Positions 26,050-54,956 of a DNA stretch of 64,000 bases are shown one piece after another. This DNA is from an uncultured Verrucomicrobiota bacterium (GTDB taxonomy: Bacteria > Verrucomicrobiota > Kiritimatiellia > RFP12 > UBA1067), in assembly GCA_946544115.1 (NCBI GenBank), contig CAMNLW010000002.1, forward strand, positions 6,729 through 70,728. Reading direction: 5' to 3'. The position numbers and the translations under genes are program-made. How positions within the stretch are numbered: the first letter of the stretch is position 1; the number at the start of each line of letters is the position of its first letter. The notes under the pieces were generated by a model. It was not told the origin of the DNA, did not search any database, and saw only the letters and a program-made list of their open reading frames with translations.

Positions 26050-26166
26050 AAAAGTTAAAAAAGTCTGTCATCGATCGTCACGCCGTGCATACATTCTCTT
26101 GGTTAAACTTGTTGCTCGAACCGAAGCGTCATCTTCAGCGCTTCGGTTTCGTGTATCTAGAGCACG
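26050..26166 (+). repeat. Copy 1 of a ~117-bp direct repeat that contains a GC-rich hairpin (cgaaccgaagcg...cgcttcggtttcg)
   Basis: Near-identical to 26320-26436 (2-3 mismatches). Lies 36 bp after the mnmG stop. Confidence 0.8.
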
Positions 26167-26199
26167 TCTTCCCTCCTAAAAACACCCCCCTGGGGGTTG

Positions 26200-26310
26200 A
26201 AGGGCGCTGGTTGGGGGGTAGCACCGTGCTACCCCTAGGGGTAGCGCCGCGCTACCCCCGGGGTAGGGTTCGGCTACCCTCAGAGGGTAAAAAAACTACC
26301 CCCTCCCTGC
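26200..26310 (+). repeat. Tandem GGGGTAGC...GCTACCCC palindromic hairpins
   Basis: ggggtagcaccgtgctacccc and ggggtagcgccgcgctacccc are perfect 10-bp-arm hairpins. They are followed by degenerate copies (gggtagggttcggctaccc; gagggtaaaaaaactaccccctc). Confidence 0.7.
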
Positions 26311-26319
26311 CGCCAAAAA

Positions 26320-26436
26320 AAATCGTAAAAAAGTTTGTCATCGGTCGTCACGCCGTGCATACATTCTCTTGGTTAAACTTGTTGCTCGAACCGAAGCGTC
26401 ATCTTCAGCGCTTCGGTTTCGTGTATCTAGAGCACG
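26320..26436 (+). repeat. Copy 2 of the ~117-bp direct repeat
   Basis: Same sequence as 26050-26166, offset by 270 bp. Followed immediately by the strong promoter at 26486. Confidence 0.8.
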
Positions 26437-26485
26437 CCTCTCCTCCCGGTTTTTCCACCCGCAAAAAAAAAATTCGCCACCCCCA

Positions 26486-26515
26486 TTGACAAGCGAACAG
26501 AAAATATGATACAAT
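26486..26515 (+). promoter_or_regulatory. Sigma-70-type promoter with a consensus -35 and an extended -10
   Basis: TTGACA (26486-26491), an 18-nt spacer, then TGATACAAT (TACAAT 26510-26515). This is the only clear -35/-10 pair in the window. Confidence 0.6.
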
Positions 26516-26521
26516 ACCCGC

Positions 26522-26744
26522 GTTCTTGAGCAAGGAAGGGGTTTCGGATGGGATGTCCGAGCCTGTGGTTAACGGACAAGGTCAATCCAGCCGTCAGCCC
26601 TGAACTGCGAGGGGACAACAAGTTAACCACCTGTAGTGGACTGATGGCGACGGCGGTCGGGTGACCGCAGGAGCTGCGGAAAGCGAAGGGTACGAGCGAG
26701 GGTCCAACAAGCCCGAACTCACAAAAAAAGAAAGAAACAGAAAA
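26522..26744 (+). ncRNA. Conserved, probably structured, ~220-nt 5' leader (copy A)
   Basis: About 85-90% identical over ~180 nt to the reverse complement of 54080-54260. Shared blocks: ggatgggatgtccgagcctgtggttaacggacaaggtcaatccagccgt..gccctgaactgcgaggggacaa.aagttaaccacct, ggcggtcgggtgaccgca and caacaagcccga. Internal complementarity is visible (gtggttaac / gttaaccac; gcggtc / gaccgc). Confidence 0.55.
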
Positions 26745-27473
26745 ATGAAGAAGCTCATGCTTGTTGCTGCTGTTGCAGCGATTGCTGGCGGCGCGTTCGC
26801 CGCTTGCGAGGAAGATACCGCGTGCGTTTACGCGTACAAGATGACCCTCACGGGCAAGTCCACGGTTCCGCTCGCCAAGAAGGGCAATGCCTCCAAGTGC
26901 GTTGACGCCGCTTGCTTCCGCAAGGTCGGTTCCTACAAGGTCACTGGTTATGTCTTCGGCACGACCACCGACAACACCAATCCTGACGAGTGCATCGAAG
27001 GTTGCGCTTGCAACGATTTCTCCGCGATCAAGTCCGTTCTCTGGAACACTGGCACCAAGACGCTCCTGACCGACGCGCTCGAGATCAAGCAGCTCGACCT
27101 CATCGGCGCTGATGCCAAGTCCGCTGAAATCGTCGCCACGCTTGGCGATCTCACGCTCGCCGGCTTCGGCAAGTACAACACGAAGACCCTCAAGCTCACG
27201 TCCGCGTCGGGCAACTTCGCCGGCCAGGTCGCCGCTCCCAAGTGCTCGACCTGCACGTACAATGCTGACACCTGCGATGACACCTGCGAAGAGACCGACT
27301 CGGCCGTGTTCGCGGTTTGCACGCTGGAGGCCACTACCGCCGAGACGACCGCTGCTTACGGCAAGTGGAGCCTCAAGACCAACGCTGCCGCCGTCAAGAA
27401 GCTCACGAAGAACTACTCTGAAGAGGGCACGGTTCTCATTCCGTCGAACGTGAAAGTAGTTCAGGTTCCGTAA
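26745..27473 (+). CDS. Secreted Cys-rich protein (243 aa) of unknown function
   Basis: Signal peptide MKKLMLVAAVAAIAGGAFAA, then 13 Cys in the mature part (CEEDTAC, CVDAAC, CIEGCAC, CSTCTYNADTCDDTCEE). The track ORF 26661 is an upstream extension through the leader. Confidence 0.55.
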   Translation: MKKLMLVAAVAAIAGGAFAACEEDTACVYAYKMTLTGKSTVPLAKKGNASKCVDAACFRKVGSYKVTGYVFGTTTDNTNPDECIEGCACNDFSAIKSVLWNTGTKTLLTDALEIKQLDLIGADAKSAEIVATLGDLTLAGFGKYNTKTLKLTSASGNFAGQVAAPKCSTCTYNADTCDDTCEETDSAVFAVCTLEATTAETTAAYGKWSLKTNAAAVKKLTKNYSEEGTVLIPSNVKVVQVP

Positions 27474-27560
27474 TTCCAACGATTGAGTGAACGCTAAAAC
27501 GGGCGGGGGGGCTTTTAAAAGTCTTCCTGCTCGTTTTCACATGAAAAAATGAGGTACGAC

Positions 27561-28574
27561 ATGCTTAGAACGGTTTTCATCTATGTGGCCCTGATGGCTG
27601 TGCTTGCCGGATGCCGGCGGCAGAGCGATCGGCATGTCGTGCTTTCCGTCAACGGCCACGATCTCACGGAGGAGATGATTTCAAGCCGTGCCAATCTCAT
27701 GGTTGCGCTTCGGCATCATCGAAATCCGAAGTTCTCCGATGATGATGCGTTGAAGCTGAGGGAGACATTCAGGCGGGGATATGGAAACGTGTTCATAAGG
27801 GACGCTGTTTTAGCCGATTTCGCAAAGTCGCGCGGAATATCGATTCCCGACAGGATTCTTGCAGAATGCCGCGCCAAGGCGTTCGCCGCCCAGCGAAACC
27901 GCGGCGACAAGAACTTTGAAGATATGGTTGTGCGCGCAGGTGTCGACAGGCGGGAATTTGACGCCCAGATACGCACCGAGGCTCTTGTGGTTGCAGTCAA
28001 GGAGCATCTCGCGCAGAGCAACCCGACGAATTTCACGACCGCCTACGCTGATGACCTTATAAAGAGGATGAAGGCGTTCAACGCCGATATGGTCAAAACC
28101 AACGCGCTGGTTTATGCGCGAGCGACAAATGTGTGGATGCGTCTTAACGCAGGTGCCGATTTCGCGCAGACGGCGAAGGAGTTTACCGAGGTTCCCGAAG
28201 AAAAAGACGATTGCGAGTGGGGCATTCTAGACGATTCGTTTCTGCGCGACAGCCCTCGGCTTCTGGAGGCCGTCAAGAAGTTGCGCGTAGGCGAATTCAC
28301 GCCGCCGGTCGAAGGGGACAACGCCTTGTTGATCGTGCGGTTGGACGGTCTTTCAAATGATGGCGCGTATGAGCTTTCGCGCATAGTGTTTCTGCTTCCG
28401 ATGATGCTCGACATAGCCTCCAGAGAGGAGATCATCGAGACGGCCTATAAAGAGCATTACGACAGCCTTTACAAGACGACTCTAAAGGATTTAATCGATT
28501 CTGCCGACATTGTTCGGATGAACCAAGATTCAGAGCAAACAAGCAAGGAGGACAAAAATGAAGCAAAAAGGTAG
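27561..28574 (+). CDS. Lipoprotein with SurA-N-like chaperone and parvulin/PpiC-like regions
   Basis: Lipobox LAGC at residues 16-19. VLSVNGHDLTEEMI resembles the SurA N-domain. EFTPPVEGDNALLIVRL resembles a parvulin core. GAGG lies 9 nt before the ATG at 27561. Overlaps the next gene by 17 nt. Confidence 0.45.
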   Translation: MLRTVFIYVALMAVLAGCRRQSDRHVVLSVNGHDLTEEMISSRANLMVALRHHRNPKFSDDDALKLRETFRRGYGNVFIRDAVLADFAKSRGISIPDRILAECRAKAFAAQRNRGDKNFEDMVVRAGVDRREFDAQIRTEALVVAVKEHLAQSNPTNFTTAYADDLIKRMKAFNADMVKTNALVYARATNVWMRLNAGADFAQTAKEFTEVPEEKDDCEWGILDDSFLRDSPRLLEAVKKLRVGEFTPPVEGDNALLIVRLDGLSNDGAYELSRIVFLLPMMLDIASREEIIETAYKEHYDSLYKTTLKDLIDSADIVRMNQDSEQTSKEDKNEAKR

Positions 28575-31500
28575 TTCACTGGCAGCCGTGAAGATCATAT
28601 GCGCAGCCGCGATCATGGCGATTGCGACCGCATCGGCCGAAACGGCGGATGGAGGGCTGGTTTACAGCACATCCACCGATTACAAGGTCGGTGAGTGGAA
28701 TTCTCATTTTGTGGCGATAAAAGAGCTGGCCGACGCGGAGCGAATCCCATTGGTCGTTTTCTGGGCGAACCCCGGTTGCCCCAAGTGCAAAACGCTTGAA
28801 GCGGCGCTTAACACCGATACGGCCAGGGCTTGGCAGAAGAACAAAGGATACTATTTCGTATTTGCCTTGGACATTAAAACAACAGACGGAAGCAAGGCCA
28901 AGTCCTTCGCCAGACACGCGAGCGGCCATTTCCCGTATATAGCCGCATACTGGAACAACGGTGTCTCCAAAAAGCCGATCAAGACGACTTTTTCGGGGCG
29001 CAACGGTGAAATGCCCGTGAAGAGCGGCTCCTTGGCAGAGCAGTTCATGGCCTCCATAGATAGGTATATAGGCAACTATGTCAAGCCCGTCAATTATGTC
29101 GGCGGCAAGGTTTCGCTTGAAGAGACCGACGGCAACCGCCTGGAGGCCGAGGAGGGCACGAGCGAGATTTCCTTCGAGATGGTTCGCGACGAGACCGCCG
29201 CCGAAGTCGCCACGAACAACATTGTAAAGGTTATCGGGCCGGACGGCAAGACGGCGCAGACAGTGTCCGTCACGTGGACTGCCGGGCAGACAAAGCAGAC
29301 TGTTACGGTCGATATATCAAAAGTCTCCTTCTCCAAGGATGGCGAAAAGGCCCTCTTGGTTGCAGCCGATGCCAACGGCAGCGAGCAGGCGACCAACACT
29401 GTCACATATGTGGCCGGTTCCGGCGAAAGTTCGGCGAATCCTCTTTGGATCGGCGAGCGCTCAGCGCCCAAGACCACCGGAAAACTTCTCACGGCGACAA
29501 CGGCTCCCGCTCTTCAGTTCGGCGAGTGGACTATGGATCTAGATACGGCCAAGGCGACAGCGGCGGCGGCCGAAGGCGACGCATACACGCTCGTCTCAGT
29601 TGAAGGTTCACTCTGGTGCCATGATTGCGCCAATACCGAGCGCAACTTCCTGTCCGTCACCGACAAGGACGGCAATAACAGGTTCAACAAGTGGGCCGCC
29701 GACAACAATGTGGCGCTTGTCGCCATTGATGTGCCGAATTTCACAACGAACAGTTCCGAAAATATAACAAGACCTACGATTCTTTCGCGCAAGGCAATTA
29801 CGACCACTCTTGCTTATGAAATTCCCGCTTCCGGATTTTATGATGTATCGAAAGGCGGTGCGCCTCAGTCTCTTACACTGCCTATGGTCCGCAGCGGTCT
29901 CGGCTACCTTACGCGCAAGGGCGTTTCGGATGAAACCGCCGCCGCCGCCCTCGAGCGCAACCGCCAGCTCGTGACGACCGACTTCTCTGAGGGAGGCTTC
30001 CACAGTGCGGCGGATTCGTCGCCTTACAGGACCGGTGTGCCGATTTTCGTCGTTCTCGACAAGAAGGGCAATGTTGCGGCCCGCCTTACGCGTTTCGCCT
30101 CAGTGAGCCCGATGGCGTCTGCCAAGGACGACTGGGACAACATCATCAAGCGCTTCGACGAGCTTCTTGCAATCGCCCGCGGCGACCACAACGACGGCGG
30201 CGTTCTCGAAAACGACTTCCCGTCCGCCAAGATCGCCGGCTTCAAGGCGAACGGCGGCAGTGCGAGCGGCGAGATAAGCCACGTGGATTATCGCGACATT
30301 TTTGCGCTTCAGGATTTCACCGGCAATGCGCTGCTCAAGACTACTGTCTCCGGCGAGAGCGCCGCAGAAGTGACGGTTTCGTATATCAAACTCGGCGCGG
30401 ACGGCAAGGAGCAGGTCGTCGGCGAGCCTGCGACGGGCAAACTGTCCGACGGCATCGAGCTGGAATACACGTTCACGGTTGCGGGCGAGTATTTCGTCAA
30501 AGTGTCCGGCGATCTGGCCGGCGACGATTTTGGCATTGCGAACGAGACGGCCGGCAATTTCCACTCCTACGCGGTTTCCAGCACGGTGGTCTACGTACCG
30601 CAGGAGGAAAAGGCCAGCGGCAATCCGGCGGCAGGTTCCGACCAGGTGACGATGCGCCTTGAAAAGGGTCAGATGTACAGGATCGAAGGACTCAACACAT
30701 CGAAGGTCACCGATATTCTTGAGCCGACCGACTCCGAAGATCCTTACTGCATCTTCTACACGGCGCTTGTCGACGGCGACAAGTCGCTTACGACGCAGAA
30801 GAAGGATGTCACGGTTTCTTACCAGAAGTGGACGCCGGGAACCGTGGGCTTCACCGCCGCCAACAAGTCTGTGACCGAGAGCGCGGGCGAGGTCAAGGTT
30901 TCCCTCTCGCGCACAGGTGGCGCGTCGGGCGACATAACGGTCAAAGTCGCTCTTGATGAAGAGGCGACCACTTTGTATGACAGCGACGGCAAGGCCCGCT
31001 TTGAATTCAAAGATGCCGAACTCATATTGAAGGAAGGCTGGCTCGGCGAAACGAACGTCACGGTGGCGGTCTTGGACGATGCACGTTTTGACGGCAGCGG
31101 CGATGTCGCGCTGAGCCTGGAAGTGGTCAAGGACGAGAACGGCGACACGGTTCTTGCAACGACAAACTTTGTGCTCGCGGTGAGGGAGGACGACAAGCAG
31201 GCCGCAGGAAAGGCAGCCTTTGTCGGCGCGGATCCGTTCTTCTCGCGCAGGGCGACGGTCTATGCGCGTGAGAGCGATGGCGCCACTGTTTACGCGAAGC
31301 GGGTGGAGGCGTCCGACGGGTATGTCACCGTCAAGGTCGCCGCGACGAACGGCGCGAAGACCGAGATCGGCGGCGTCGAGACCAATCTGCTCGTGTGGGC
31401 CAACCACAAGTTCGATGAGCAGGCGGTAAAGGTTTCCGGCATCGCGGCGGGCAGGTCGGCCAGGCTCACGCTCACCAGTCCTACGGACGGGCTGAGGATT

Positions 31501-33105
31501 CTTTCGGCGTCCAACTATGTGACCGTTGTTTCCGTGGCGGACGACGCGCCCGCGTTCTCGACGACCGAGAAAGCCGAGAAGATCTATCGTTATGTCGCGG
31601 TCAGCAATGTCTATCCCGTGGTTCTCGCCGAGAGCGTGGACGCCTCCGCCGCGAAGCTTACTTTCACAAAGCTTTCCGGCACGCTCCCCGCCGGTCTCAC
31701 CGCGAAGTACGACGCCGATTCCTGCGCCCTTGCCGTGATCGGCACGCCGACAGCCAAGGCGGGCGTGTACACAATGGTCTACCAGGTGACGCAGAGGGTC
31801 GGGACGAAGACCACGCCCGGTCTTACGATAGAGTTGACCTACACCATCCAGGATCCGACTGTTGCGGGCGGCGACGAAGCCGACTACAACGAGGCTGTCG
31901 CGGCGGGCCGGTCGCGTACCATCAAGGACATTCCTGTGATCGACGCCGAAGCGAAGCGTCTCGCGGGCGTTCTGCAGGTTACGATACCGCAGAACGGCAG
32001 GGCGAGCGCGAAGTTCACGTGCGCCGACGGTGCGGTTTCGTTCAGCGCCAAGGGGTGGTCGGCGTTCGGCGAGAGCGGCGAAAAGGCGCTTTCGGCCAAG
32101 CTTGCTTCGACGAAGAAGGGCTACTCCATGACGCTCGTCGCCAGCAACGACGGCTCCGTCACGGCGGAGATCGATACGCCCGATACGGAAGAAACCCCGC
32201 TCGTTGCTTCGAGCGACGGCAAAGTCTGGAGCGCCTCCAATGCTGCGGAGCCGTGGAAGGGCGTGTATACCGTCGCGCTGAAGGTCGAGAGCGTTGAAGA
32301 GACGCGCGAACAGATTGCGCCTCGCGGATATGGATATCTCACGCTCAAGCTTGAAGGAACCGGAGCGTTGCGCGACGGACGCGTGACTTGGAGCGGAATT
32401 CTGCCGAACGGCATGTCGGTTTCCGGCAGCACAATACTGTCCGGCAACGAAAACGACGACTGGGCGACGCTCCCGATATACAAAAAGTCTTCGCTGGACG
32501 AGATTGCCCTTGTTGCCAGGATGTATCCCGGGCTTGCAACGCGTTCCGTCATCGAGGATGACTCGGCCGACGCTGTCTGGCGTCATGCCGAGCGTATCGA
32601 AAGCGCAAACGTGGAATGGACCGCCGAACTTGGCGTCTACGGCAGCATCTTCGACAAGACGGCCAATCTCCTTGACTGCTGCGAGGAATACCAGAAGTCC
32701 ACGTTCGATCTGGTGTTCGACACCTCGATGATAGGAGAGACGTATCGCGGCGCCGTGCAAAAGGCGGGCGTCGCACAGCTGGTCGTTTCCGACACCAGGC
32801 TCAGTCTTGAAAACCGCCCGGCGGGAATGTCGTCCATTTCGTTCAACAAGTCGCTTGGAACGGTCTCCGGCAGTCTGCGCCTGCCGTGTGAAGATGGTTA
32901 CATCTCGGCCGTCTACAAGGGCGTTCTGTTGACTGGCTGGGGCGAGGGATGCGGTTGCAGCGACGAAGATGAAGAGTTCGGTCTTCCGTTCGTCATCGGA
33001 GCGTTTTACTTCACCGACAGAATCGGCTATGAAGCAAAGTCTGGCAGTCGCGTCGTAGAGCGGCAGCTTTCGGTGAAGCGCGGAGGTTCGGTTTTTACAG
33101 AGTAA
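28558..33105 (+). CDS. Giant secreted protein A (1515 aa): two thioredoxin-like CxxC domains, PPC-like, Calx-beta and putative Ig-like domains, plus a family-specific C-terminal domain
   Basis: Signal peptide. LVVFWANPGCPKCKTL and SLWCHDCANTE...PIFVVLDKKGNVAARLTRF are Trx-like. The Calx-beta signature is VTESAGEVKVSLSRTGGASGDITVKV. The putative Ig-like segment is LPAGLTAKYDADSCALAVIGTPT. The C-terminal about 360 aa (GVYTVALKV...GYGYLTLKLEG...CGCSDEDEE...FYFTD) are shared with the other four giants. Confidence 0.6.
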   Translation: MKQKGSSLAAVKIICAAAIMAIATASAETADGGLVYSTSTDYKVGEWNSHFVAIKELADAERIPLVVFWANPGCPKCKTLEAALNTDTARAWQKNKGYYFVFALDIKTTDGSKAKSFARHASGHFPYIAAYWNNGVSKKPIKTTFSGRNGEMPVKSGSLAEQFMASIDRYIGNYVKPVNYVGGKVSLEETDGNRLEAEEGTSEISFEMVRDETAAEVATNNIVKVIGPDGKTAQTVSVTWTAGQTKQTVTVDISKVSFSKDGEKALLVAADANGSEQATNTVTYVAGSGESSANPLWIGERSAPKTTGKLLTATTAPALQFGEWTMDLDTAKATAAAAEGDAYTLVSVEGSLWCHDCANTERNFLSVTDKDGNNRFNKWAADNNVALVAIDVPNFTTNSSENITRPTILSRKAITTTLAYEIPASGFYDVSKGGAPQSLTLPMVRSGLGYLTRKGVSDETAAAALERNRQLVTTDFSEGGFHSAADSSPYRTGVPIFVVLDKKGNVAARLTRFASVSPMASAKDDWDNIIKRFDELLAIARGDHNDGGVLENDFPSAKIAGFKANGGSASGEISHVDYRDIFALQDFTGNALLKTTVSGESAAEVTVSYIKLGADGKEQVVGEPATGKLSDGIELEYTFTVAGEYFVKVSGDLAGDDFGIANETAGNFHSYAVSSTVVYVPQEEKASGNPAAGSDQVTMRLEKGQMYRIEGLNTSKVTDILEPTDSEDPYCIFYTALVDGDKSLTTQKKDVTVSYQKWTPGTVGFTAANKSVTESAGEVKVSLSRTGGASGDITVKVALDEEATTLYDSDGKARFEFKDAELILKEGWLGETNVTVAVLDDARFDGSGDVALSLEVVKDENGDTVLATTNFVLAVREDDKQAAGKAAFVGADPFFSRRATVYARESDGATVYAKRVEASDGYVTVKVAATNGAKTEIGGVETNLLVWANHKFDEQAVKVSGIAAGRSARLTLTSPTDGLRILSASNYVTVVSVADDAPAFSTTEKAEKIYRYVAVSNVYPVVLAESVDASAAKLTFTKLSGTLPAGLTAKYDADSCALAVIGTPTAKAGVYTMVYQVTQRVGTKTTPGLTIELTYTIQDPTVAGGDEADYNEAVAAGRSRTIKDIPVIDAEAKRLAGVLQVTIPQNGRASAKFTCADGAVSFSAKGWSAFGESGEKALSAKLASTKKGYSMTLVASNDGSVTAEIDTPDTEETPLVASSDGKVWSASNAAEPWKGVYTVALKVESVEETREQIAPRGYGYLTLKLEGTGALRDGRVTWSGILPNGMSVSGSTILSGNENDDWATLPIYKKSSLDEIALVARMYPGLATRSVIEDDSADAVWRHAERIESANVEWTAELGVYGSIFDKTANLLDCCEEYQKSTFDLVFDTSMIGETYRGAVQKAGVAQLVVSDTRLSLENRPAGMSSISFNKSLGTVSGSLRLPCEDGYISAVYKGVLLTGWGEGCGCSDEDEEFGLPFVIGAFYFTDRIGYEAKSGSRVVERQLSVKRGGSVFTE

Positions 33106-33130
33106 TGCAAGTATTTCAGAGGGGGGATTT

Positions 33131-37312: not shown

Positions 37313-37315
37313 CCG

Positions 37316-38440
37316 CTACAGCGGCGGTATCGCCTTTTTCACTGCGGCAAGCAGTGCTTGGGGCGAAGGTTGTGTATAGCGGGCGTGCATCCCGCCGCCC
37401 GCGTGGCCGGTGATTGCATCCGTGATATGCGGCGGAACCCCCGCCTCGTCCATCATTGAGATGAATGTGGCACGCAGCGAATGAAAGCTTGCACGTCCGT
37501 TGCCGTGTGCAAAAACGCCGCAGCTTTTGAAAGCTGCGGCGATTTTCCGCGATGGACGATGACGAGCATCTTCGGAGAAAAGATATGGATCTCCGTCAGG
37601 AGGAGAGGTTCGTCGCCGCAGTATAAGATTTCGCACCTGGTTCGTCAGCGGAATCTTGAGTGGAATAGGTTTGGTGAGATGCGTCTTGTTCGGTACAACG
37701 CGCAGGAACCTCCCATCCGCCTCAATTTCGGACCATTCCAGCCAGGCGACATCCGAAAGCCTGAGCCCGGTCGAATAGCCTATCACAACCATATCCGCCA
37801 GGTCTCGATTCCTGCTCTGCAGATAACCATGCACTTTGCGGCTCTCGTCAAGCGACAGCCGCCTGTAGTGCTCGTGTCTGCAAAGCGGTTTCACGGTGCC
37901 TGCTCCGGACGTCTCCCAAAGCCCACGGTCGAGGCCGAGCGTGCTCCAGACGCGTCGATAAAACACGAGCATCCGACGCGCTGATATATATGCCCCCATA
38001 AGTCTCGCTGTTATCTTTGCACATGCATCCTTCTTTAGTATGTCTTCTGGCAAAAGGCCAAGTTCATCAGCCGCTTCGGCAAGAATCCGCATCCAGCGTT
38101 CATAGCTCGTTTCGCTTGCTTCGGAAATCGTTCCAGCTGCGCGAGCCATGAATTCGTCCCAGAGATTTCTCCATGTGAGAGACGCCAGAGCAGAACGTCG
38201 GCGAAGCTCAAGGTCGGCCCGCGCGCCAAGCCGTGATAGATGCTCAAGCCAGGCCTGCTCGCTGTCTTCCGGCGGCAGAAGTTTTCGCGCCCGCTTCTTC
38301 GCAATGTTGAAATCGCCCGTTTTCAGCGAAATCCACTTGCTCCTCCCGCCAAGGCGCGTGACGAGATAAAGGATGTTACCGCGGAGTTGAATAGATCCAA
38401 AGTTAAGTTTCATGGAGTGAATAATAGCAAATTTGCGCAA
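37316..38440 (-). CDS. Tyrosine site-specific recombinase / phage-type integrase
   Basis: Catalytic residues recognisable: GLRLSD (Arg I), HSLRATF (HxxR) and GGMHARYTQ (Tyr). Its stop is 3 nt from the stop of giant B on the opposite strand. Confidence 0.75.
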   Translation of the reverse strand: MRKFAIIHSMKLNFGSIQLRGNILYLVTRLGGRSKWISLKTGDFNIAKKRARKLLPPEDSEQAWLEHLSRLGARADLELRRRSALASLTWRNLWDEFMARAAGTISEASETSYERWMRILAEAADELGLLPEDILKKDACAKITARLMGAYISARRMLVFYRRVWSTLGLDRGLWETSGAGTVKPLCRHEHYRRLSLDESRKVHGYLQSRNRDLADMVVIGYSTGLRLSDVAWLEWSEIEADGRFLRVVPNKTHLTKPIPLKIPLTNQVRNLILRRRTSPPDGDPYLFSEDARHRPSRKIAAAFKSCGVFAHGNGRASFHSLRATFISMMDEAGVPPHITDAITGHAGGGMHARYTQPSPQALLAAVKKAIPPL

Positions 38441-38472
38441 TAACGACTATAGAAACATATTGCGCCCGCTTA

Positions 38473-47428: not shown

Positions 47429-47485
47429 TTTTGTCCTCCGTTTGATACATTCTAGTTTCTTTAAATGTTTAATATTCGTCATCCG

Positions 47486-50400
47486 TCATTCGGCAGCAGT
47501 AAGATCTACCGCGTCGCCCACTCGCACCGTGCGTTTGCGATTACGCCCTTGCGCGTCCACATAAGGCCTTGTCGCATCGTACCAGCAAGAGCCGAGGACG
47601 CGAGGCGTTTCGCCCGGTATGGCAAAGCCGCGCCATTTTACGCGTGTCTGCCGGTCGGATTTCTCATCTAACTTTACGCTTATAACTCCTGACGCCATCC
47701 CTGACGTTTTATTGACATTCACCGTGCCGCCAGACCAACTCCAGCCTGCCCACGACCAAAGCGCGCCGATAACGTCATAGTTGTTCTTGTAGGAGAGCGA
47801 TTCAATGCCTGATTCGTCGTGTGACCAGAAAGGAATAACATTCGGTGTAGCGCATAGAGCCGTGCCGTCAATATCAACCATAGCCGCAAATGTATCCGAA
47901 GACGAACTTGCAAAGACAGACAGAGTTGCGCTTGCCGCGTTATTCGTAACCGGCACAAGGTAAGACGTTCCGCTGATGTTCTTCCCGTTTGGAAGTGTGC
48001 CTGCGAACATAACGGCGCCGCGATTCCACAGGCTTCTTGTGTCGCATTTAAGTCGTATGGCCGGAGAGCCGAAGCAGAGCGTGTTTTCGTTTGTCGTCGC
48101 GTCGAGAACAAACGCCGCAACATAATTGCCGCCGAAAACTTCTGCAGTATGGTTCGTGCTCCACTGTTGAGCGCCTGCCGGGATGTCCGCGGTTCCCACC
48201 AAGATTTCGTCAGCACATCCGCCGCCTTGCGAAACGGTTGCGCCAAGCGAACCGTCCGCACCGAGCGTAGCGCCAAAAATCCATTTACCACCGCAGCAAG
48301 CCGACTTCTCGGCATACAATGACACCGTGCCGGATTCATCCACGGCCGCAAGACCCGGCGCGGAGAAAGCAACCGCCCTGCCGCCATTCATGCGATAACG
48401 CGCGCTCGTCTTGCCGTTCTTGGACACAGTCAAGTCAAGAAGACCTGCGAGACGGGTGCCGTCTTCGCTGAGCAGAGGCAGGCCGTTCCATGAACGGGCT
48501 TTGACAAAGCCGTCGTTCACATCGGCAAGAGCCTTGTTTTTAAATGTCACTGTCACGGGCATGGAATAAAGCCGCCCGCCGCCATCACGCTCTAGCAAGA
48601 CCCAGTATGTCGCCGTCGTATCAACAGTTCCTGTGGTGGGGGTGCCGGTTACGACAAGCTTGCCGTCGACAAGTGTCACTTTAAGTCCCGCAGGGACGCT
48701 GCCGGATATTTTTACCAGAGACTTGACAGTCATGCCGTCCGGTATCGCAACCGAAGTAAGGTTTGTCATGGTCGTAGTGTACTGCACGCCGCTCCATTTC
48801 ACGTCGTCGCCGTCGAAAAGCGGCGCGTCGCCGGGGAGAACGCGAACCTTGAGCGTCGCCCCGTCCTTGACCACGGGCACCGAATTGGAGGACGTCACCG
48901 TCACCGTGACGTCGGTGTAACCGCTCTTGCCAGGGGCCGGGAATCCTTTGTCGAGGAACGCCGTCTGGGTCCCGGTCAGGTAGTTCGCCCAGGAAAGCGT
49001 CTCCCTTGCCGTGTCCTTCCCGTTCTTCCAGCTGATGTACGCTGCCGCGGGCCCCTTGCCGCCAGTGCGGTTTACCTGAACGGAGATCGCGTCGTCCGTG
49101 CGCAATTCGCCGTCCGCCATGTAGCGCACGTAGATCCGCCCGTCGGCTCGCACCGCCGGCGTCACGGACACCACCGCGATCTGCCCTTCCTCGGATGGCT
49201 CCTTGCCGTAGGAGATGGTGTAGTACTTCTCCACGCCAGCCATGGCGTCTATCTCTTCGATGCGCAGAGTGATGTTGTAGAGCCCGTCGTTGTACTCGCT
49301 TCCCTTCAGCGTGACCGGCACGTACTTGACGCCAGTCTCGCCGTTCGTCCATACAAGGTCGGTCGAGGCAAACTCGTAGCGGCCGGTCGCCGTTGTCAAC
49401 GTTTCGTCGATTGCCACGTTCACCCTCAACTCTCCGTCGCTTCCGAAGAGGCGGTAGAGCGGCACCTGTATCACCTGGTTGGTCGTGGCCTGGATGACGG
49501 TGGCGGCCTGTCCAAAAAACGATATCAACCCGGCATTGGTCGTAGCGCGATATGCAGATACCGTGTAGCCGAACGCCGATTTGCCGCCATATTTCTTGCC
49601 GCTTCCGGCGCTTTCATATTTTCTGGACACGGCCACGAACAGTCGCCCGGCATCCACATCCTCCTGCGACAGTGAATAGACGATTTCGGCGTCTCGCACA
49701 CCGTTTGTCGCAAAAATGCTAAGCCCCCCATCAAGTTCGCAGCACTCTCCGCTTTTCTCATCGCGGCACAGTACCGTGACAAAAGCGTTGCTGGTGGAGG
49801 TTCCGAAAACAACCTTGCCGTCCGCCCAGCCGTCGCCGGTCAGCTGGATGCAGTCGATGGTGTCGTTGACGGAGAGAGTCCCTGTCGTTTCGCCGCCGAA
49901 GGCGATTGATGGCAGTCCTGCTTTCGCCCAGTTCTCTGGCTCGTCCGGCAGATCGTTCGTAGCCTCCGCACCGTCCGCCGCCTGCTCGACCAGCTCGTTA
50001 AGTCGCGCCAGATTCTCGTCGAGATCGCACTTCCCATCGGCGTCGAAGTACGGCGCGAGGAACCCGGCCACGGAACCATCGGCCCGCACGAACGCGATCT
50101 GGAAAGTATTCGGTAGGGCGGTCGCCCCGCGACCGCCGAACAGCTCCTTCGCGTCCGCCTCCGCCTGCGCAGCGTATTCCTCGCCCTGCTTTGCGCTCAA
50201 CCCGTTCAGCGACATGAACGACGCACCGCTGTTGCCATTGGAGGCCATGTTGTACGAGAAGAGCGACGCTCCTGTTTCCAGCTCGGGCTTGTCGAGATAT
50301 ACAAGCGAGACTTTGTTGCTTGCGCACCATTCCTCGAAATCCGCAGATGCAAAGACAGCTTCATTAAAAGCGCGAAGCCCTGCATCCCAAACGACTCCTC

Positions 50401-51370
50401 CGTTGACCGCCAGGAAGAATCCTTCGCCCGCGCTTTTAATCAGAGCCGCATCGGTCGTCCATTCGCCGTAGCCAGGAGTGACTATTGTGCCGGGAAGATG
50501 TGGAAATGCGCACGCGTTTGCCGGTTGCGCAACGCATGTTATTGAATTTGTCGCAACAGCAAGATGATTTGTGTTGAGAAGCACAAGTGTCACCTTATCG
50601 TTGACGTTGGTCAGTTTCCCGAAAAGATCGATGGCGATCTCGCTTGATTGGCCGCTCTTTGCCCAGTTGAATTCATTTGTCGCAATCACGCCATCTGGGT
50701 ATTTCACCTCAAGCCAGTTTGTTTCCGCCTTGTCAAGGCTGTTCGTGCGTATGAATGGAACATAAACAGTTTCCTTTTCTGCTGTAACCTTGAGTTCACC
50801 GTCCTCCACCGCAAACTTTGCATCTGACGCCGGCGGAATGAAATGATGTTTGGGAAGTTCCGCGTTGAACCGTGTAACGAAGGCGTTGACGATACCTTGA
50901 TAGCCCGCTGGGTTGGAAAACGTGCCGGAAGACACGAGTTCATACCCGTCAGGGAACTTCGCATAGCAAACACACACAGGTGAGTTCCCAGGGTCACCAT
51001 GATGCTTTAACACGAAGTCGGCGACATCGCTTTCTGCTTGACGTGCAGTTCCATAGAACAGCCCCTGCAGGACCTTTTTGCTGACGCCCCATGATGAATA
51101 TGTGGCATAAGAAGCATTCAAGGCCGAGACAAAGGAGCTGAGCGTGGATTCACTCTTCCCCCATACGACTGTAAAAGGACGCTGGGCTTCGGCGCAGAGT
51201 TCCAGACATTGTGAAAGGGCGTCGTCTGGCAATGGCGTGGACTGCGACCCGTAAAACCTACCCGATCCAATGGCAATCGCCAATCTGTTGATGTACAGAA
51301 AGTTCACCAGTTGCGTGGCATGCAACATTCCGATGAACAGAAGAGACAAGACAAAGACGACTTTTTTCAT
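47486..51370 (-). CDS. Giant secreted protein C (1294 aa), an A-type paralog whose two Trx-like domains have lost the CxxC motif
   Basis: Signal peptide. FTVVWGKSESTL sits where the other paralogs have CxxC. The second Trx-like region GGVVWDAG...VSLVYLDKPE also lacks Cys. Calx-beta-like and putative Ig-like (VPAGLKVTLVDGKLVVTGTPTTG) segments. C-terminal domain homologous to A/A' (SLWNRGAVMFAGTLPNGKNISGTSYL...). Confidence 0.55.
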   Translation of the reverse strand: MKKVVFVLSLLFIGMLHATQLVNFLYINRLAIAIGSGRFYGSQSTPLPDDALSQCLELCAEAQRPFTVVWGKSESTLSSFVSALNASYATYSSWGVSKKVLQGLFYGTARQAESDVADFVLKHHGDPGNSPVCVCYAKFPDGYELVSSGTFSNPAGYQGIVNAFVTRFNAELPKHHFIPPASDAKFAVEDGELKVTAEKETVYVPFIRTNSLDKAETNWLEVKYPDGVIATNEFNWAKSGQSSEIAIDLFGKLTNVNDKVTLVLLNTNHLAVATNSITCVAQPANACAFPHLPGTIVTPGYGEWTTDAALIKSAGEGFFLAVNGGVVWDAGLRAFNEAVFASADFEEWCASNKVSLVYLDKPELETGASLFSYNMASNGNSGASFMSLNGLSAKQGEEYAAQAEADAKELFGGRGATALPNTFQIAFVRADGSVAGFLAPYFDADGKCDLDENLARLNELVEQAADGAEATNDLPDEPENWAKAGLPSIAFGGETTGTLSVNDTIDCIQLTGDGWADGKVVFGTSTSNAFVTVLCRDEKSGECCELDGGLSIFATNGVRDAEIVYSLSQEDVDAGRLFVAVSRKYESAGSGKKYGGKSAFGYTVSAYRATTNAGLISFFGQAATVIQATTNQVIQVPLYRLFGSDGELRVNVAIDETLTTATGRYEFASTDLVWTNGETGVKYVPVTLKGSEYNDGLYNITLRIEEIDAMAGVEKYYTISYGKEPSEEGQIAVVSVTPAVRADGRIYVRYMADGELRTDDAISVQVNRTGGKGPAAAYISWKNGKDTARETLSWANYLTGTQTAFLDKGFPAPGKSGYTDVTVTVTSSNSVPVVKDGATLKVRVLPGDAPLFDGDDVKWSGVQYTTTMTNLTSVAIPDGMTVKSLVKISGSVPAGLKVTLVDGKLVVTGTPTTGTVDTTATYWVLLERDGGGRLYSMPVTVTFKNKALADVNDGFVKARSWNGLPLLSEDGTRLAGLLDLTVSKNGKTSARYRMNGGRAVAFSAPGLAAVDESGTVSLYAEKSACCGGKWIFGATLGADGSLGATVSQGGGCADEILVGTADIPAGAQQWSTNHTAEVFGGNYVAAFVLDATTNENTLCFGSPAIRLKCDTRSLWNRGAVMFAGTLPNGKNISGTSYLVPVTNNAASATLSVFASSSSDTFAAMVDIDGTALCATPNVIPFWSHDESGIESLSYKNNYDVIGALWSWAGWSWSGGTVNVNKTSGMASGVISVKLDEKSDRQTRVKWRGFAIPGETPRVLGSCWYDATRPYVDAQGRNRKRTVRVGDAVDLTAAE

Positions 51371-51406
51371 GGCGCCGACCTTCTGATTATTTAGACCCCT
51401 GATTAA

Positions 51407-52513
51407 TTAGAAAAGATTCCTGCCATGCGGATAAACGATGGTGTTTAAGCCGTTCGTAACGAGGTTTTCTACATAACTGTCAATAGCCTGAAGCTGCATC
51501 TGGATCTTTAAGTCCGAAAACATCTTATCGTTTGACTGACGAAGGAAGAGGGGTTCCTTTTCCATTCTTATACGCTTTAGTATTCTCTGCTCCGACATGG
51601 CAATCTTTCCTTCCTTGTCGCGCCGCGCAGGGATTATTTCGCTGACCATAATCATATCGATGCCGTCGTCATCCTCCTGAATAGGAAGAATCTCACCCTT
51701 TGCCGCAGCAAACACGAGTTCGGCAATCGTTTCGTCATCGATGTCACCACGCGCAACCGTCTCCCACTCACCGGATTCATTTATTTCAAAGCGCCCGTCC
51801 GGGCCGTACTTTTCGACAAGAGCGTCAAATGTCAACTTGCCGGCGGCGATTTCATTCCGCCAGTTCTCGAACATCTGACGCCGGACGCTGTTTGTAAGGC
51901 CTATGATGTTGTTCTCCAAAGTGACTTGTGCCTGCGCGTTGGAAACGAAAGTCATGTCAACTTCGGTCACCGGGGGGATTCTCTGCTTCACGAGTTCGGA
52001 GACGAGTTCGCGTTCTGCAATTTGATATATAAGGTGTCTGTCGGCATTCCCGTACTTTGAAAGCAATTCATCGGCAGTAATTTTGTTAGCCGTCGCCCTC
52101 TCTTCAAGCACAGCCTTGATCTTAGCCACAAGGGCGGCATTATCCATCACATTGTTTGTCCTGGCATCGTCGATGAGAAGCCTGTTGCGGATAAACTGAT
52201 CGAGGAACTGCACCCTCGCCTGTTCGAAATATTTCTCAGCCTCTCCCAGATTTCCCTTGGCATGCTTGCGTATCATAGCCAGCAACTGCCCAGTCCACAC
52301 GTCATAGTCACGCTTCAGCAGTGGATAACCATTGACTGCGACGATTACGTCATCTGGCTTCATGTCATCTATTTTCTTCACATCACGGGAGTCCTTAACG
52401 CTTATACGTGCATTCAACTCCAATGGCGACTGAAACAAAGATGCTCTATTGTCATTTCGGCCACATCCACAAACGGCCAGAACAACTAGTATGAAAAACG
52501 ACGTTTTTTTCAT
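51407..52513 (-). CDS. Lipoprotein with SurA-N-like and parvulin-like regions; second copy, heading the minus-strand array
   Basis: MKKTSFFILVVLAVCGCG lipobox. VAVNGYPLLKRDYD (SurA-N-like). GEILPIQEDDDGIDMIMVSEI (parvulin-like). Confidence 0.45.
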   Translation of the reverse strand: MKKTSFFILVVLAVCGCGRNDNRASLFQSPLELNARISVKDSRDVKKIDDMKPDDVIVAVNGYPLLKRDYDVWTGQLLAMIRKHAKGNLGEAEKYFEQARVQFLDQFIRNRLLIDDARTNNVMDNAALVAKIKAVLEERATANKITADELLSKYGNADRHLIYQIAERELVSELVKQRIPPVTEVDMTFVSNAQAQVTLENNIIGLTNSVRRQMFENWRNEIAAGKLTFDALVEKYGPDGRFEINESGEWETVARGDIDDETIAELVFAAAKGEILPIQEDDDGIDMIMVSEIIPARRDKEGKIAMSEQRILKRIRMEKEPLFLRQSNDKMFSDLKIQMQLQAIDSYVENLVTNGLNTIVYPHGRNLF

Positions 52514-52594
52514 TTGCAATCTCACTGATGTATATTAAGAAAGGGTGGGGTGTAGCAATACACCTCACCCATTCTCGACTTGCGTCAAGTCAAC

Positions 52595-54064
52595 TTACCT
52601 GAAGTTGCCAAGACCATAGTACCTAGCGAACTGCGGTGTCAGCGCAGGCACGGAGTAGCGCGTAGCCGCCGTAGAGACGCGAGACGCCGTCTCAGCCGCA
52701 CCAGTTGTAGCGACGAAGATCGTCTGGTCGTTCAGACGAAGCGCACATCCCTTAAGCGTAGACACGAGATCTTCCAGATCGTCAGCATCCTCGGTGTAGT
52801 TTGCAGCGTTAGCCGCTACCGTACCGCCGCTGAGACGACTAACCTCGGGAACCGTCAGAGCGGCCACCGGGATGTTGTTCGCACGACGCTTGATCGACCA
52901 GGTACCAGTAATGATATCCGTCGTGTTGAGCTCGGCGAAGCCATCCTGCCAAAGGTCGCGCTGATCCTGGTCACCAGCATAGTCCTGAACAGGGTTGGCC
53001 AGCGGAGTAAACCACTGATCTTCCCAGTCCTGAACCAGGTTGAGCCAAGTAATGACCTGACCATTGGACGTATACGAAGTGTGGAGCAATCCCTCGTAGG
53101 TGCAGAGGAAGAGACCACCCTTCAGATTGCCCGAAAGCGTGTTCAGGAGCGCAGTAGCGGAGGTTCCGCTAAAACCGCAGCACGTACCGGCAGAGACATC
53201 GCGGATGAACTTTCCAAAGCCGGAACCATTCATCCAAGTGTCGTGGAAGTAGTACGTGCCGGTCCAGCCAGGAACAGCCGTAGCAATCTGCACGTCGGTT
53301 TCAAAGCCGGCATCAATGGCCGTCTGAGCTGCCTGCCACCAAGCTGCGAGGTTGCGACCTTCATAGTCAGGACCATTGTACTCGCCAAACAGATAGCAGG
53401 ACTGCCACACGTAGTCCTGAATCATAGCCATACCAGCGGTACCCGGAGTCCCCGCAGCCGGAGCAGCCGGCTGTCCCGGACCCACAGTCGGAGCCGTCGC
53501 AATACGCGAAGTGATGCCAGCTATGAGAGAATCGAGCTTTGCACGGACAGGACCAACCGCCTCGCCACCAACATAGAGGTAGCCTTCGGCAAGACCCGAA
53601 GTAGCGTTAGGTCTGCCATCGGCACCGAACCTGTAGGACGTGTCGATGAAGTTCACTTCAATGTTTGCGGGAAGTATCTTGGCCGTACGGAACGAACGCG
53701 CATTTACCCCAGCAGGAACCGTCGCCGAATTATTCTGGACGACGAGAAACGCACGATTACGACCATGGTCAATACCAGCCGTCGCAGGATAGCCATTAGC
53801 AGCCGTAGAGCCGTTGGCAATCTTGTCGGCGATGATCGTCTGGCTTGTCGCACCCTCGCTATCGACGACCAGATACCCCTTGAGCGACGCGCTCTTGACG
53901 AGCTTCTGGTAGACGTTGCGGTTGGTGTTGTTCATGTCGCGAACGTTGATACGCTTCGCATACATGTGCTTCACGGAAGCCTTGTAATCGTAGACCTGAG
54001 GCATAACGGCAAAAGCACCGCCAGCAACGGCCGCCGTCAAGGCAGTAACCATTAGCTTCTTCAT
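52595..54064 (-). CDS. Secreted protein (about 490 aa) of unknown function; shares leader and signal peptide with the 26745 gene
   Basis: Start at MKKLMVTALTAAVAGGAFA (track ORF Met-35). The signal-peptide nucleotide sequence is homologous to that of 26745. The mature part is Gly/Thr/Ala-rich with a CCGFSG motif and has no recognisable domain. Confidence 0.5.
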   Translation of the reverse strand: MKKLMVTALTAAVAGGAFAVMPQVYDYKASVKHMYAKRINVRDMNNTNRNVYQKLVKSASLKGYLVVDSEGATSQTIIADKIANGSTAANGYPATAGIDHGRNRAFLVVQNNSATVPAGVNARSFRTAKILPANIEVNFIDTSYRFGADGRPNATSGLAEGYLYVGGEAVGPVRAKLDSLIAGITSRIATAPTVGPGQPAAPAAGTPGTAGMAMIQDYVWQSCYLFGEYNGPDYEGRNLAAWWQAAQTAIDAGFETDVQIATAVPGWTGTYYFHDTWMNGSGFGKFIRDVSAGTCCGFSGTSATALLNTLSGNLKGGLFLCTYEGLLHTSYTSNGQVITWLNLVQDWEDQWFTPLANPVQDYAGDQDQRDLWQDGFAELNTTDIITGTWSIKRRANNIPVAALTVPEVSRLSGGTVAANAANYTEDADDLEDLVSTLKGCALRLNDQTIFVATTGAAETASRVSTAATRYSVPALTPQFARYYGLGNFR

Positions 54065-54330
54065 TTTTGTTTCCTTTACTTTGGAGTCGGGCTTGTTGTC
54101 CCTTCCCCGATTCCCTCCGCTTTCCTGAACTCTTGCGGTCACCCGACCGCCTTTGCTCAAGTCCACTTCAGGTGGTTAACTTATTGTCCCCTCGCAGTTC
54201 AGGGCGCACGGCTGGATTGACCTTGTCCGTTAACCACAGGCTCGGACATCCCATCCGGGCCAAAGTCAATAAGCAAAGGCGAGAGAATGGGGTTTCCCTT
54301 GTTTTTGCTAAAAGCCGGGATGCCGCGCGA
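54065..54330 (-). ncRNA. Conserved ~220-250-nt 5' leader (copy B), inverted relative to copy A
   Basis: The reverse complement of about 54080-54260 matches 26550-26730. A candidate TAGAAT -10 (plus-strand complement attcta) lies near 54326-54331. Confidence 0.5.
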
Positions 54331-54470
54331 TTCTACTTGGCGCACCGATGCCTGTCGCTATGGCTGGACCGACACGATATTTTCCGCTGTCTCGCTGAGA
54401 CTTGCCCAAGTGTCGGCGGATTGGGGTGCCTTGGCGGGCATGACGGCCATAGATATGATATAATTGCAGC

Positions 54471-54956
54471 ATGAGCAATGCCGAAGAACTAGTTGTTAAA
54501 CTGTCCGCCAAAGGCCTTACATGCGCCACTGCCGAGTCGTGCACTGGCGGCGGTGTCGGCAGCGCCATAACTGCAGTCGCCGGTTCGAGCGCCGTTTTCA
54601 AAGGCGGCGTCATAAGCTATTCCAACGACGTGAAGGCCTACGTTCTCGGCGTGTCGCGCGATTTGCTGGCCCGGGTTGGCGCGGTGTCGGGCGAAGTTGC
54701 CGGGCAGATGGCCGCAGGAGCCCGTCGCGTCATCGGTGCCGATATTGCGGTGAGTCTTACCGGGATCGCCGGGCCGGGCGGCGGCAGCGCCGAAAAGCCT
54801 GTCGGTCTCGTCTGGTTCGGCGTCGCGACCGCCGCGCGCATAGCCACCGAGCGCCGTGTGTTCACGGGCGACAGAGCCGCCGTGCGAAGCGCTGCGGTCG
54901 CGCATGCAATAGATCTTTTGTCTGCGGCGGCCGACGGTTTGGAGGGGAAAGGGTAG
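54471..54956 (+). CDS. CinA C-terminal-domain protein / NMN amidohydrolase PncC-like
   Basis: 161-aa product. [40 protein letters not shown] matches the CinA_C family. TGATATAAT lies 6 nt before the ATG. Confidence 0.7.

Follow-up and report, generated by a model that had tools for sequence, protein, structure and literature searches.

A candidate DNA-inversion switch between two convergent giant-protein operons in a Kiritimatiellia bacterium

The 64,000-nucleotide stretch analyzed here (hereafter, the window) comes from an uncultured Kiritimatiellia bacterium (contig CAMNLW010000002.1 of assembly GCA_946544115.1, positions 6,729–70,728) and contains two convergent gene arrays coding for giant proteins, one at 26.5–37.3 kb on the plus strand and the other at 54.3–37.3 kb on the minus strand. 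According to the list of open reading frames (ORFs) and their translations, the arrays bracket an intact tyrosine recombinase gene. On balance, and with moderate confidence, we favor the interpretation that these are two alternative export-system operons, and that a recombinase-driven inversion of 27.5 kb chooses which of them is expressed.

The proposed mechanism is as follows. Each operon would produce a small Sec-exported beta-barrel protein, a lipoprotein foldase of the parvulin type, and giants of two types, A and B. The Xer-like recombinase would recombine two 99-nt inverted leader repeats, the likely crossover being a CGGA-N7-TCCG core at their outer edge. As the 27.5-kb block flips, the single strong promoter P1 beside gidA would read operon 1, as in the assembled state, or else operon 2, and the unselected operon would then face the promoter-poor flank at cinA. 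The outcome would be phase or antigenic variation with one promoter, several cassettes, and a recombination site in a conserved 5' untranslated region (5' UTR). In a compact version of this arrangement, represented by two other loci (L060 and L061; loci used for comparison are referred to by L numbers), a 1.7-kb segment with the recombinase and the promoter would flip instead.

Both arrays have the same order, i.e., leader, small secreted protein, parvulin/SurA-like lipoprotein, and giants. The plus-strand array consists of small1 (26745–27473, 242 aa), SurA/PrsA-like parvulin lipoprotein 1 (27549–28574), giant A (28558–33105, 1515 aa), and giant B (33131–37312, 1393 aa). The minus-strand array, in the order of transcription, includes small2 (52595–54064, 489 aa), lipoprotein 2 (51407–52513, 368 aa), giant A' (47486–51370, 1294 aa), giant B' (42323–47428, 1701 aa if started at MKNYSF; the ORF reaches 47482, giving up to 1719 aa), giant C (38473–42312, 1279 aa), and finally the recombinase (37316–38413, 365 aa from the ATG at 38413). 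Since gaps between genes within the arrays do not exceed 81 nt, the arrays fit two operons. The gene order on the two strands thus bears out an earlier note on this DNA, which had described two inverted operons of the same layout around a recombinase. To this we add that the recombinase is the last gene of the minus-strand array and has the same orientation, starting 59 nt after C and ending 3 nt from the stop codon of B; a weak promoter-like sequence is located upstream of it.

The leaders point to a switch. The 5' half of leader 1 (left arm, 26544–26642, plus strand) is repeated in inverted orientation in leader 2 (right arm, 54160–54258, minus strand). The alignment of 26545–26642 with 54160–54257 spans 98 nt at 96% identity, with the longest exact run of 50 nt, and is followed by the 3' halves (26643–26744 and 54065–54159, respectively), which are 75% identical down to the start codons. 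The onset of the repeat is abrupt and coincides exactly with a palindrome that has arms of 4–5 bp and the same 7-nt spacer, TGGGATG, in both copies (TCGGA-TGGGATG-TCCGA at 26544–26560 and CCGGA-TGGGATG-TCCGA at 54258–54242). Two short inverted arms around a spacer are the usual layout of a tyrosine-recombinase core. Within the genome, the 99-nt arms share 95% identity, but their identity to leaders from other species is only 57–75%. As the operons themselves have diverged anciently, just this segment seems to evolve in concert. In particular, the stretch between the GGTTAAC motifs varies among species and is almost identical within this genome.

The core motif lies just downstream of P1 (26486–26515, plus strand; TTGACA-18-TACAAT with an upstream TG, 11/12 consensus positions), which lies 29 nt upstream of the left palindrome. 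A consensus scan gave no other strong promoter of the sigma-70 type directed toward either leader. An element homologous to P1, TGnTAnAAT, is conserved upstream of operon-1-type leaders in an alignment of eight loci. The outer flank of the right arm has no strong promoter, the scan giving only 9/12 matches located further upstream. In L022, which was not included in the promoter scan, no P1-like element precedes the operon-2-type leader as judged by alignment and inspection.

The recombinase is a member of PF00589 (Phage_integrase, 2.4e-16). Its alignment with XerA of P. abyssi (4a8e) demonstrates that all residues of the R...HxxR...H/W...Y signature are kept, with the catalytic R, HxxR, H, and Y found in GLRLSD, HSLRAT, GHA, and RYT, respectively. 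A metagenome scan with this protein yielded 15 loci, and homologues down to 47% identity are associated with arrays or leaders in all cases where sufficiently long flanks are available. The recombinase of L061 (47% identity) is flanked by inverted leader copies at 4620–4806 and 6495–6685 (about 190 nt, 92–100% identity), which head two divergent operons, each encoding a small protein, a parvulin, and a thioredoxin (Trx)-containing protein; one promoter homologous to P1, TTGACC-17-GATAAT, abuts the left copy. In L060 (49% identity), a 98% inverted repeat is present on both sides of the recombinase, with one promoter found by inspection. In L063, the promoter, the palindrome site, the leader, and the small gene follow each other in this order and adjoin the recombinase. 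A giant is convergent with the recombinase in L029 (69% identity), L055 (98%), and L059 (75%); in L055 and L056, the gene immediately before the recombinase encodes a giant. Thus, linkage of the recombinase to the repeats (L060, L061, and L063) or to giants (L029, L055, L056, and L059) recurs across genomes. Moreover, the spacers match within a genome and differ between genomes (CGGCATG in both copies of L061, CAGTATG in L060). Repeats with a paired-arm core and an identical 7-nt spacer are present in both the window and L061; the right copy in L060 is imperfect.

Several observations on these homologues are worth recording. The recombinase genes of L055 (1–3414) and L056 (9840–11095) are 96% and 90% identical at the nucleotide level to the window region 37111–38414, with different flanking giants; the homology ends at the recombinase start codon and, in L055, also about 200 nt inside the 3' end of B. 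In L058, a 165-aa ORF (2053–2550, minus strand) adjoining a recombinase homologue (71% identity) may, judging from its sequence, encode a type III secretion chaperone of the CesT/SycE-like kind.

An alternative explanation is that the two operons are static paralogs with their own promoters, their leader being a 5' UTR RNA element or an operator subject to occasional RecA-mediated gene conversion, and the recombinase being a relic or a domesticated enzyme inactive on the locus. We consider it rather unlikely, but it accounts for a number of facts. A single orientation is seen in every assembly, in many loci no recombinase is located near the operon, weak promoter matches exist on the operon-2 side, and the leader is conserved across species with recurring hairpins. 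It leaves unexplained, however, the near-identity within the genome of the stretch between the GGTTAAC motifs, for which purifying selection is not sufficient, as well as the abrupt onset of identity at the palindrome and the inverted leader copies that flank recombinase homologues in L060 and L061. Nor does it agree well with the loci L016 and L023, which appear to lack the 5' segment and yet keep the promoter, the 3' leader, and the operon.

Folding gives little weight to an RNA element. The single-sequence z-scores are −1.7 and −2.3, and nearly all of the 21 pairs predicted by RNAalifold are invariant, with a covariation term of −0.89, which we regard as insufficient for a structured RNA. 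Likewise, Rfam gives zero matches at gathering thresholds in the entire window and, at permissive thresholds, only chance-level ones (E ≥1.2) at 26000–26800. Hence, of the conserved structured leader proposed in the earlier note, conservation holds and structure is weakly supported. The leader is better read as a recombination module. Rather than an RNA element next to an unrelated recombinase gene, the comparative evidence suggests that both belong to a probable DNA-inversion switch, to which the earlier note had only alluded by proposing a check of whether the region inverts. A small leader ORF, MGCPSLWLTDKVNPAVSP, was also considered and rejected, as it is not conserved in other species by inspection.

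In two operon-1-type loci, L016 (approximately 150–420) and L023 (approximately 370–640), the palindrome-bearing 5' segment of the leader is apparently missing, and the promoter, the 3' leader, and the operon are retained. In the former, alignment and inspection place a promoter, TTGCGC-17-TACAAT, directly next to the 3' leader. This suggests that expression does not depend on the recombination module and that the two can be separated.

The inversion model has to be weighed against a set of less convenient observations. No contig with the inverted junction was found: look-ups of small1, small2, gidA, cinA, and the recombinase give one orientation each, and two small1 homologues looked up for an alternative orientation have only one context each. 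Contigs often end inside the 50-nt exact repeat, although any repeat of this length would cause such breaks. The window recombinase is 10.7 and 15.7 kb away from the repeats rather than adjoining them. In L060, 5 nt of the palindrome are missing from the right-hand site, so the core can be delimited only tentatively. The single-promoter asymmetry (11/12 vs. 9/12 in the window, one promoter in L061, and one in L060 by inspection) rests on consensus scans, weak promoter-like sites (9/12) do occur on the operon-2 side, and in other species the promoter-bearing leaders are all attached to operon-1-type arrays. The 3' half of leader 1 contains a hairpin, GCGGTC-GGGT-GACCGC, and an A-rich region ahead of the start codon; since genomes with no known second copy conserve this hairpin together with the remainder of the leader, a role at the RNA level could explain part of the conservation. 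Finally, as regards export across the outer membrane, no secretion-system gene was recognized among the window ORFs scanned. Inversion between the repeats may also be carried out by RecA instead of the recombinase.

The genomic setting bears on the origin of the locus. Its left neighbors are dnaN, dnaA, and gidA, and cinA and addB/addA-like genes are found on the right. The dnaN-dnaA-gidA block (20722–26013) directly adjoins the locus, which is therefore near the presumed replication origin. The GC content is 48–53% over 38–48 kb, 58–62% over most of A and B (30–38 kb), and 62–64% in the flanks. Such a profile, together with the near-identical recombinase genes accompanied by different giants in L055 and L056 (96% and 90%), could indicate that the lower-GC minus-strand array (C, B', A', SurA2, and small2) was brought next to the resident operon by an element that is or once was mobile, with the recombinase as its integrase. 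We find this genomic-island scenario improbable. The repeats are inverted, and there are neither direct att-like repeats nor other mobile-element genes; the 64-kb window contains no tRNA according to ARAGORN, in agreement with the absence of tRNA context stated by the earlier note. The recombinase itself is located in the high-GC part, and its homologues down to 47% identity stay with arrays or leaders where the flanks permit a judgment. Besides, operon-2-type arrays are conserved orthologously in L022, L026, and L027. As an unrelated giant gene at 6604–16509 also is GC-poor, low GC seems to be a general property of these genes.

The window is matched by contig DGVK01000062.1 of a metagenome-assembled genome (MAG; GCA_002395905.1) and by several metagenome assemblies. 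The fetched NCBI record contains a run of N inside giant B (window 37143–37229 vs. L088 11186–11332), representing an assembly gap or a masked stretch. Because of it, B is uncalled in that record and antisense ORFs are listed, so the annotation may be unreliable. Within B, the NCBI record seems to differ from the window, but this is entirely due to the run of N.

The logic of the proposed inversion switch has close precedents. In Vpma of Mycoplasma agalactiae, recombination by Xer1 at sites in a conserved 5' UTR, with a unique promoter and a conserved signal peptide, has been demonstrated experimentally (PMC2268961). The Vpma locus, as well as Vsp of M. bovis and Vsa of M. pulmonis, encodes a Xer-like recombinase (Xer1, Mbr, and HvsR), as does the locus described here, and in all of them a conserved 5' UTR and signal peptide precede variable secreted or surface proteins, with the sites (in our locus, the putative sites) between promoter and start codons. 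Inversions of the Vpma type put alternative silent genes behind the unique promoter (PMC2268961). In contrast to the single small lipoprotein genes of these wall-less hosts, here two operons of 10–16 kb encoding giants and a foldase would be switched in a diderm bacterium of the Planctomycetes-Verrucomicrobia-Chlamydiae (PVC) group.

Another analogy is provided by Bacteroides thetaiotaomicron, where a tyrosine recombinase encoded in the middle of the BT1032-53 locus acts at a 7-bp site to exchange the operons that a single promoter drives (bioRxiv 10.1101/521070). Like our locus in the proposed model, BT1032-BT1053 and the SusC/SusD shufflons of B. fragilis come from gut anaerobes and combine a mid-locus recombinase, whole operons, one promoter, and a 7-bp crossover in the 5' ends. 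Their sites, however, are in the coding 5' ends of susC and their cargo is nutrient transporters, whereas here the putative site is in an untranslated leader and the cargo is uncharacterized giants.

Other switches place the promoter differently. The sap locus of Campylobacter fetus has a promoter-bearing invertible segment between oppositely oriented homologous 5' regions, and its inversion is RecA-dependent. In the H-segment of Salmonella, inverted by the serine recombinase Hin, the recombinase gene and the promoter are together inside the invertible segment. The compact L060 and L061 loci resemble the latter, with recombinase and promoter inside the segment, whereas in the window the promoter is outside and the operons are inside. 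Overall, if inversion indeed takes place, the locus would be controlled by a new version of a familiar type of inversion switch.

Turning to the proteins, the five giants fall into two types, of which the B-type consists of PPC, Calx-beta, and Ig beta-sandwich domains. Pfam identifies Thioredoxin_7 in A and C, Calx-beta in A, B, C, and B', and PPC in B and B'. Giant A comprises a signal peptide, two Trx-like domains (the first with CPKC and the second with WCHDC), Calx-beta, an Ig-like region, and a C-terminal module at residues 1109–1515. Giant C is of the A-type and carries CQHC, WCPDC, Calx-beta, a He_PIG-like Ig domain, and the C-terminal module. Giant A' is a diverged A-type protein that retains the module, but no Trx is found in it by Pfam. 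Giant B has a signal peptide, PPC-like repeats, Calx-beta, and a triple-barrel module at residues 914–1393, and B' has PPC-like repeats, two Calx-beta domains, and the module. By an iterated profile, the PPC-like repeats number three in B and three in B', not the eight or more that had been reported for B-type giants.

All-against-all BLASTP comparison only partially confirms the suggested colinearity of A with A' and of B with B' along their whole length. B and B' are indeed colinear (30–38% identity), but A and A' align at just 24% identity in two segments, and the closest paralog of A is C (35% identity). Similarly, two CxxC Trx-like domains, ascribed in the earlier note to A-type giants in general, exist in A (CPKC and CHDC) and C (CQHC and CPDC), whereas A' has lost both motifs. 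The GCxxC and WC[PH]DC motifs are kept in A/C-type orthologues from more than 20 loci and hence are under selection. Thus, A and C combine the Trx fold with a conserved CxxC, as thioredoxin-fold oxidoreductases do, and A' does not; the redox activity of these domains is predicted from their sequences.

The first gene of every related operon encodes nearly the same signal peptide (MKKLMIAAA.AA..GGAFA; MKKLMLVAAVAAIAGGAFA in small1) followed by a variable mature part, often with 8–13 cysteines (12 in small1). The signal peptide of small2, also a secreted protein, is as in small1, and its orthologue is encoded in L022. We identified 76 homologues of small1. Small1 and small2 have no BLASTP match to each other at E ≤1e-3 and share only the signal peptide and a VY.YK strand (VYDYK in both). 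The model of small1, with a predicted local distance difference test (pLDDT) score of 88.7, is a beta-barrel that matches the same generic list of barrels as the C-terminal module of the giants. Nevertheless, hhalign of the small1 family against the module detected no homology (probability 0.1%), despite the similar class of the barrel fold.

The second gene of each operon encodes, as the earlier note had noticed, a SurA/PrsA-like lipoprotein. Both proteins contain the SurA N-terminal chaperone domain and a PpiC-type rotamase domain characteristic of such parvulins (SurA_N_3 6e-08 and Rotamase 5e-05 in lipoprotein 1, whose lipobox LAGC was found by inspection; Rotamase 1.8e-04 and SurA_N_3 6.7e-03 in lipoprotein 2). 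The same domains are found in the orthologues from L005 and L061, although some scores are near or below the gathering thresholds. The two lipoproteins do not match each other by BLASTP at E ≤1e-3. The Pfam domains and the conserved CxxC motifs are those of the PrsA/SurA/PpiD chaperones and the Thioredoxin_7/DsbD-like oxidoreductases, respectively. In contrast to these, the foldase here is dedicated to an operon, and the Trx folds are inside proteins of 1,300–1,500 aa rather than stand-alone enzymes. The foldase and the Trx domains would serve periplasmic folding and disulfide chemistry.

All five giants end in a common module, previously described as an unrecognized domain of about 360 aa. 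It is indeed shared by all of them and is covered by neither Pfam nor NCBIfam, but it measures 345–410 aa in giants of the A-type and about 480 aa in those of the B-type. Profiles of the two versions that include orthologues align over 341 columns (hhalign probability 99.9%, E 8e-32). A profile search among 1.84 billion representative proteins found the module in at least 2,717 protein clusters (at 50% identity) at E ≤1e-3, including 362 at E ≤1e-30. In the best 150 of the 2,717 clusters, it is located at the extreme C-terminus; these proteins are mostly 1,000–2,500 aa long, and the shorter ones look fragmentary. Few source names are given, and those read "hypothetical protein" or "Calx-beta domain-containing protein [Kiritimatiellia]." As the giants vary in other respects but all end in this module, it probably has the same role in each of them. 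We infer that it serves the assembly, anchoring, or recognition for export of a structure located on the cell surface or outside the cell.

The earlier note had suggested profile analysis and structure prediction for this domain. The AlphaFold2 model of residues 914–1393 of B (pLDDT 89.5, predicted template modeling score 0.88) is all-beta, with approximately 34 strands forming roughly three barrel-like units. Foldseek comparison of this model with the PDB produced no global match (TM-score ≤0.17), the best ones being the two-barrel proteins BFA1 and DUF3598. Hence, the predicted structure is read as a new tandem arrangement of calycin-like beta-barrels. A PDB sequence search with the N-terminal half of A returned nothing. 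Another short tail, "...F(I/V)(K/R)(V/L)(F/Y)LVR," terminates the upstream giants of L055 and L056 and the product of a gene in L057; it may be another sorting-type C-terminus.

The presence of one module in all giants invites the idea of a shufflon that swaps 3' ends, in which the recombinase would exchange C-terminal modules via sites in the convergent 3' ends, as Rci does for pilV. Indeed, the recombinase gene is immediately adjacent to B and C at their 3' ends, L055 ceases to be homologous to the window about 200 nt inside the 3' end of B, and the 3' region of B contains a palindrome, TCGGAGTTCTTCTCCGA, with a similar one at a similar position in L059. Still, this explanation appears very improbable. 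The modules are only 20–38% identical and therefore contain no conserved crossover segments. No short inverted repeats of high identity exist between the 3' regions, only the coding homology of B and B' (70–83%), and the spacers of the intragenic palindromes differ both from each other and from the leader sites. The palindrome itself is perfect and occupies positions 36803–36819, about 500 nt from the 3' end of B; it has the arms of the leader core and another spacer. Its counterpart in L059 (1184–1200) is at the equivalent place of the B orthologue. Probably, it is a coding coincidence (S-E-F-F-S-E).

Synteny of the arrays extends well beyond this genome. It recurs in 43 loci from MAGs of the Kiritimatiellae type from gut and rumen, which were compared with the window proteins by tblastn, so the synteny is not confined to one organism, which the earlier note had named as a way for its proposal to fail. 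A scan of species-representative genomes showed that the relatives are almost all gut or rumen MAGs labeled Kiritimatiellae or Kiritimatiellia, with some labeled "Lentisphaeraceae" or Verrucomicrobia and the rest unclassified. The order small1, SurA, A, B is kept in L010, L011, L013, and L015, and variant first genes are observed in L004, L005, L007, L016, L018, L021, and L023. The order small2, SurA, (A'), B', C is kept in L022, L026, L027, and L030. Two MAGs have both operon types on different contigs. Since the orthologues of the two types are kept apart across loci, the duplication is old and has been maintained, as originally proposed. Elsewhere, the arrays also encode small HEAT-like proteins as well as giants carrying He_PIG, Flg_new_2, or BspA-type leucine-rich repeat domains, which are typical of surface proteins.

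None of the window proteins matches, in Pfam or NCBIfam, the described families of adhesins, S-layer proteins, or cargo of the type IX (T9SS), type V (T5SS), or type I (T1SS) secretion systems. Specifically, no window protein has the T9SS Por_Secre_tail at E ≤0.01, and the C-termini are instead barrel modules of 345–480 aa. There is no Autotransporter match in Pfam that would indicate T5SS or an inverse autotransporter; the model consists of small barrels of the 8-stranded type, not of a membrane translocator barrel with 12–16 strands, and the Hbp barrel and AaaA are marginal matches only. RTX repeats, SLH domains, and LPXTG or PEP-CTERM signals were not reported by Pfam or NCBIfam. Calx-beta, PPC, and He_PIG are shared with many adhesins and define no secretion class. 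Surface lipoproteins of the Slam/type XI secretion system (T11SS), including NHBA, fHbp, TbpB, HpuA, and hemophilin, as well as other calycins, are only 6–11% identical to the window proteins. Unlike the former, the window proteins have three fused barrels and non-lipoprotein signal peptides, and no Slam/DUF560 gene was seen; thus, the combination of a lipobox, a C-terminal 8-stranded barrel, and an adjacent Slam/DUF560 gene that defines this class is absent.

Taken together, the system is real, conserved, and unannotated: the family and its module are new to databases, being built largely from familiar surface-protein domains. The proposal of an undescribed surface or secreted system therefore holds as far as the lack of matches to described families and the widespread synteny are concerned, but the surface location and the redox activity remain predictions. 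The giants are likely secreted to the surface, and the locus would represent two alternative versions of one lineage-specific export system. We suggest, tentatively and with less than even confidence, the more ambitious picture of a phylum-specific surface system with no homology to any described secretion or adhesin class, which has a triple calycin-barrel module and its own foldase and Trx domains, and whose antigenically distinct versions are switched by a 27.5-kb inversion near the replication origin. In the literature, we found nothing specific on inversions, giant surface proteins, or cell-surface proteins of Kiritimatiellae.

Kiritimatiellae are common in gut and rumen communities and almost uncultured. 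The locus defines a large unannotated family with a confidently modeled module and conserved operon partners, and so offers a starting point for annotating and structurally characterizing these proteins. Should the inversion occur, the strategy of one promoter with swappable cassettes, of which Mycoplasma and Bacteroides provide examples, would be extended to the PVC group and to whole operons of giant proteins, and this would point to strong pressure from phages or host immunity on these surfaces.

Repeats of other kinds were observed next to the locus. The gidA (mnmG) gene at 23941–26013 (plus strand) contains an in-frame 66-nt tandem repeat (24676–24900, 3.4 copies, 91% identity). This insert encodes repeated units of 19 residues, unusual for a housekeeping enzyme, and holds the palindrome GTTCCACGTGGAAC. 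Between gidA and P1, a 129-nt direct repeat with 94% identity occupies 26048–26176 and 26318–26446, each copy carrying a strong hairpin (GAACCGAAGCG...CGCTTCGGTT), and a 23-nt tandem repeat (26215–26266) lies between the copies. Among the loci L001–L069, the 129-nt repeat is confined to this genome; it could represent tandem terminators or a small repeat element.

Near the recA gene of another organism, a run of short ORFs (58, 132, 314, and 303 aa; L002 7978–10912 and L003 3682–6616) includes a fragment of the B-type C-terminal module with 47% identity and looks like a decayed giant gene. Finally, the giant encoded at 6604–16509 of the window (minus strand, 3301 aa), which is unrelated to the five and whose GC content also is below that of the flanks, contains an M12B reprolysin-like metalloprotease domain, three CHB_HEX_C/Fn3_assoc domains, Laminin_G_3, LTD, and a CotH kinase domain. 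Its homologues are located downstream of B-type giants in L008 and L020, and it may belong to the same surface-protein neighborhood.

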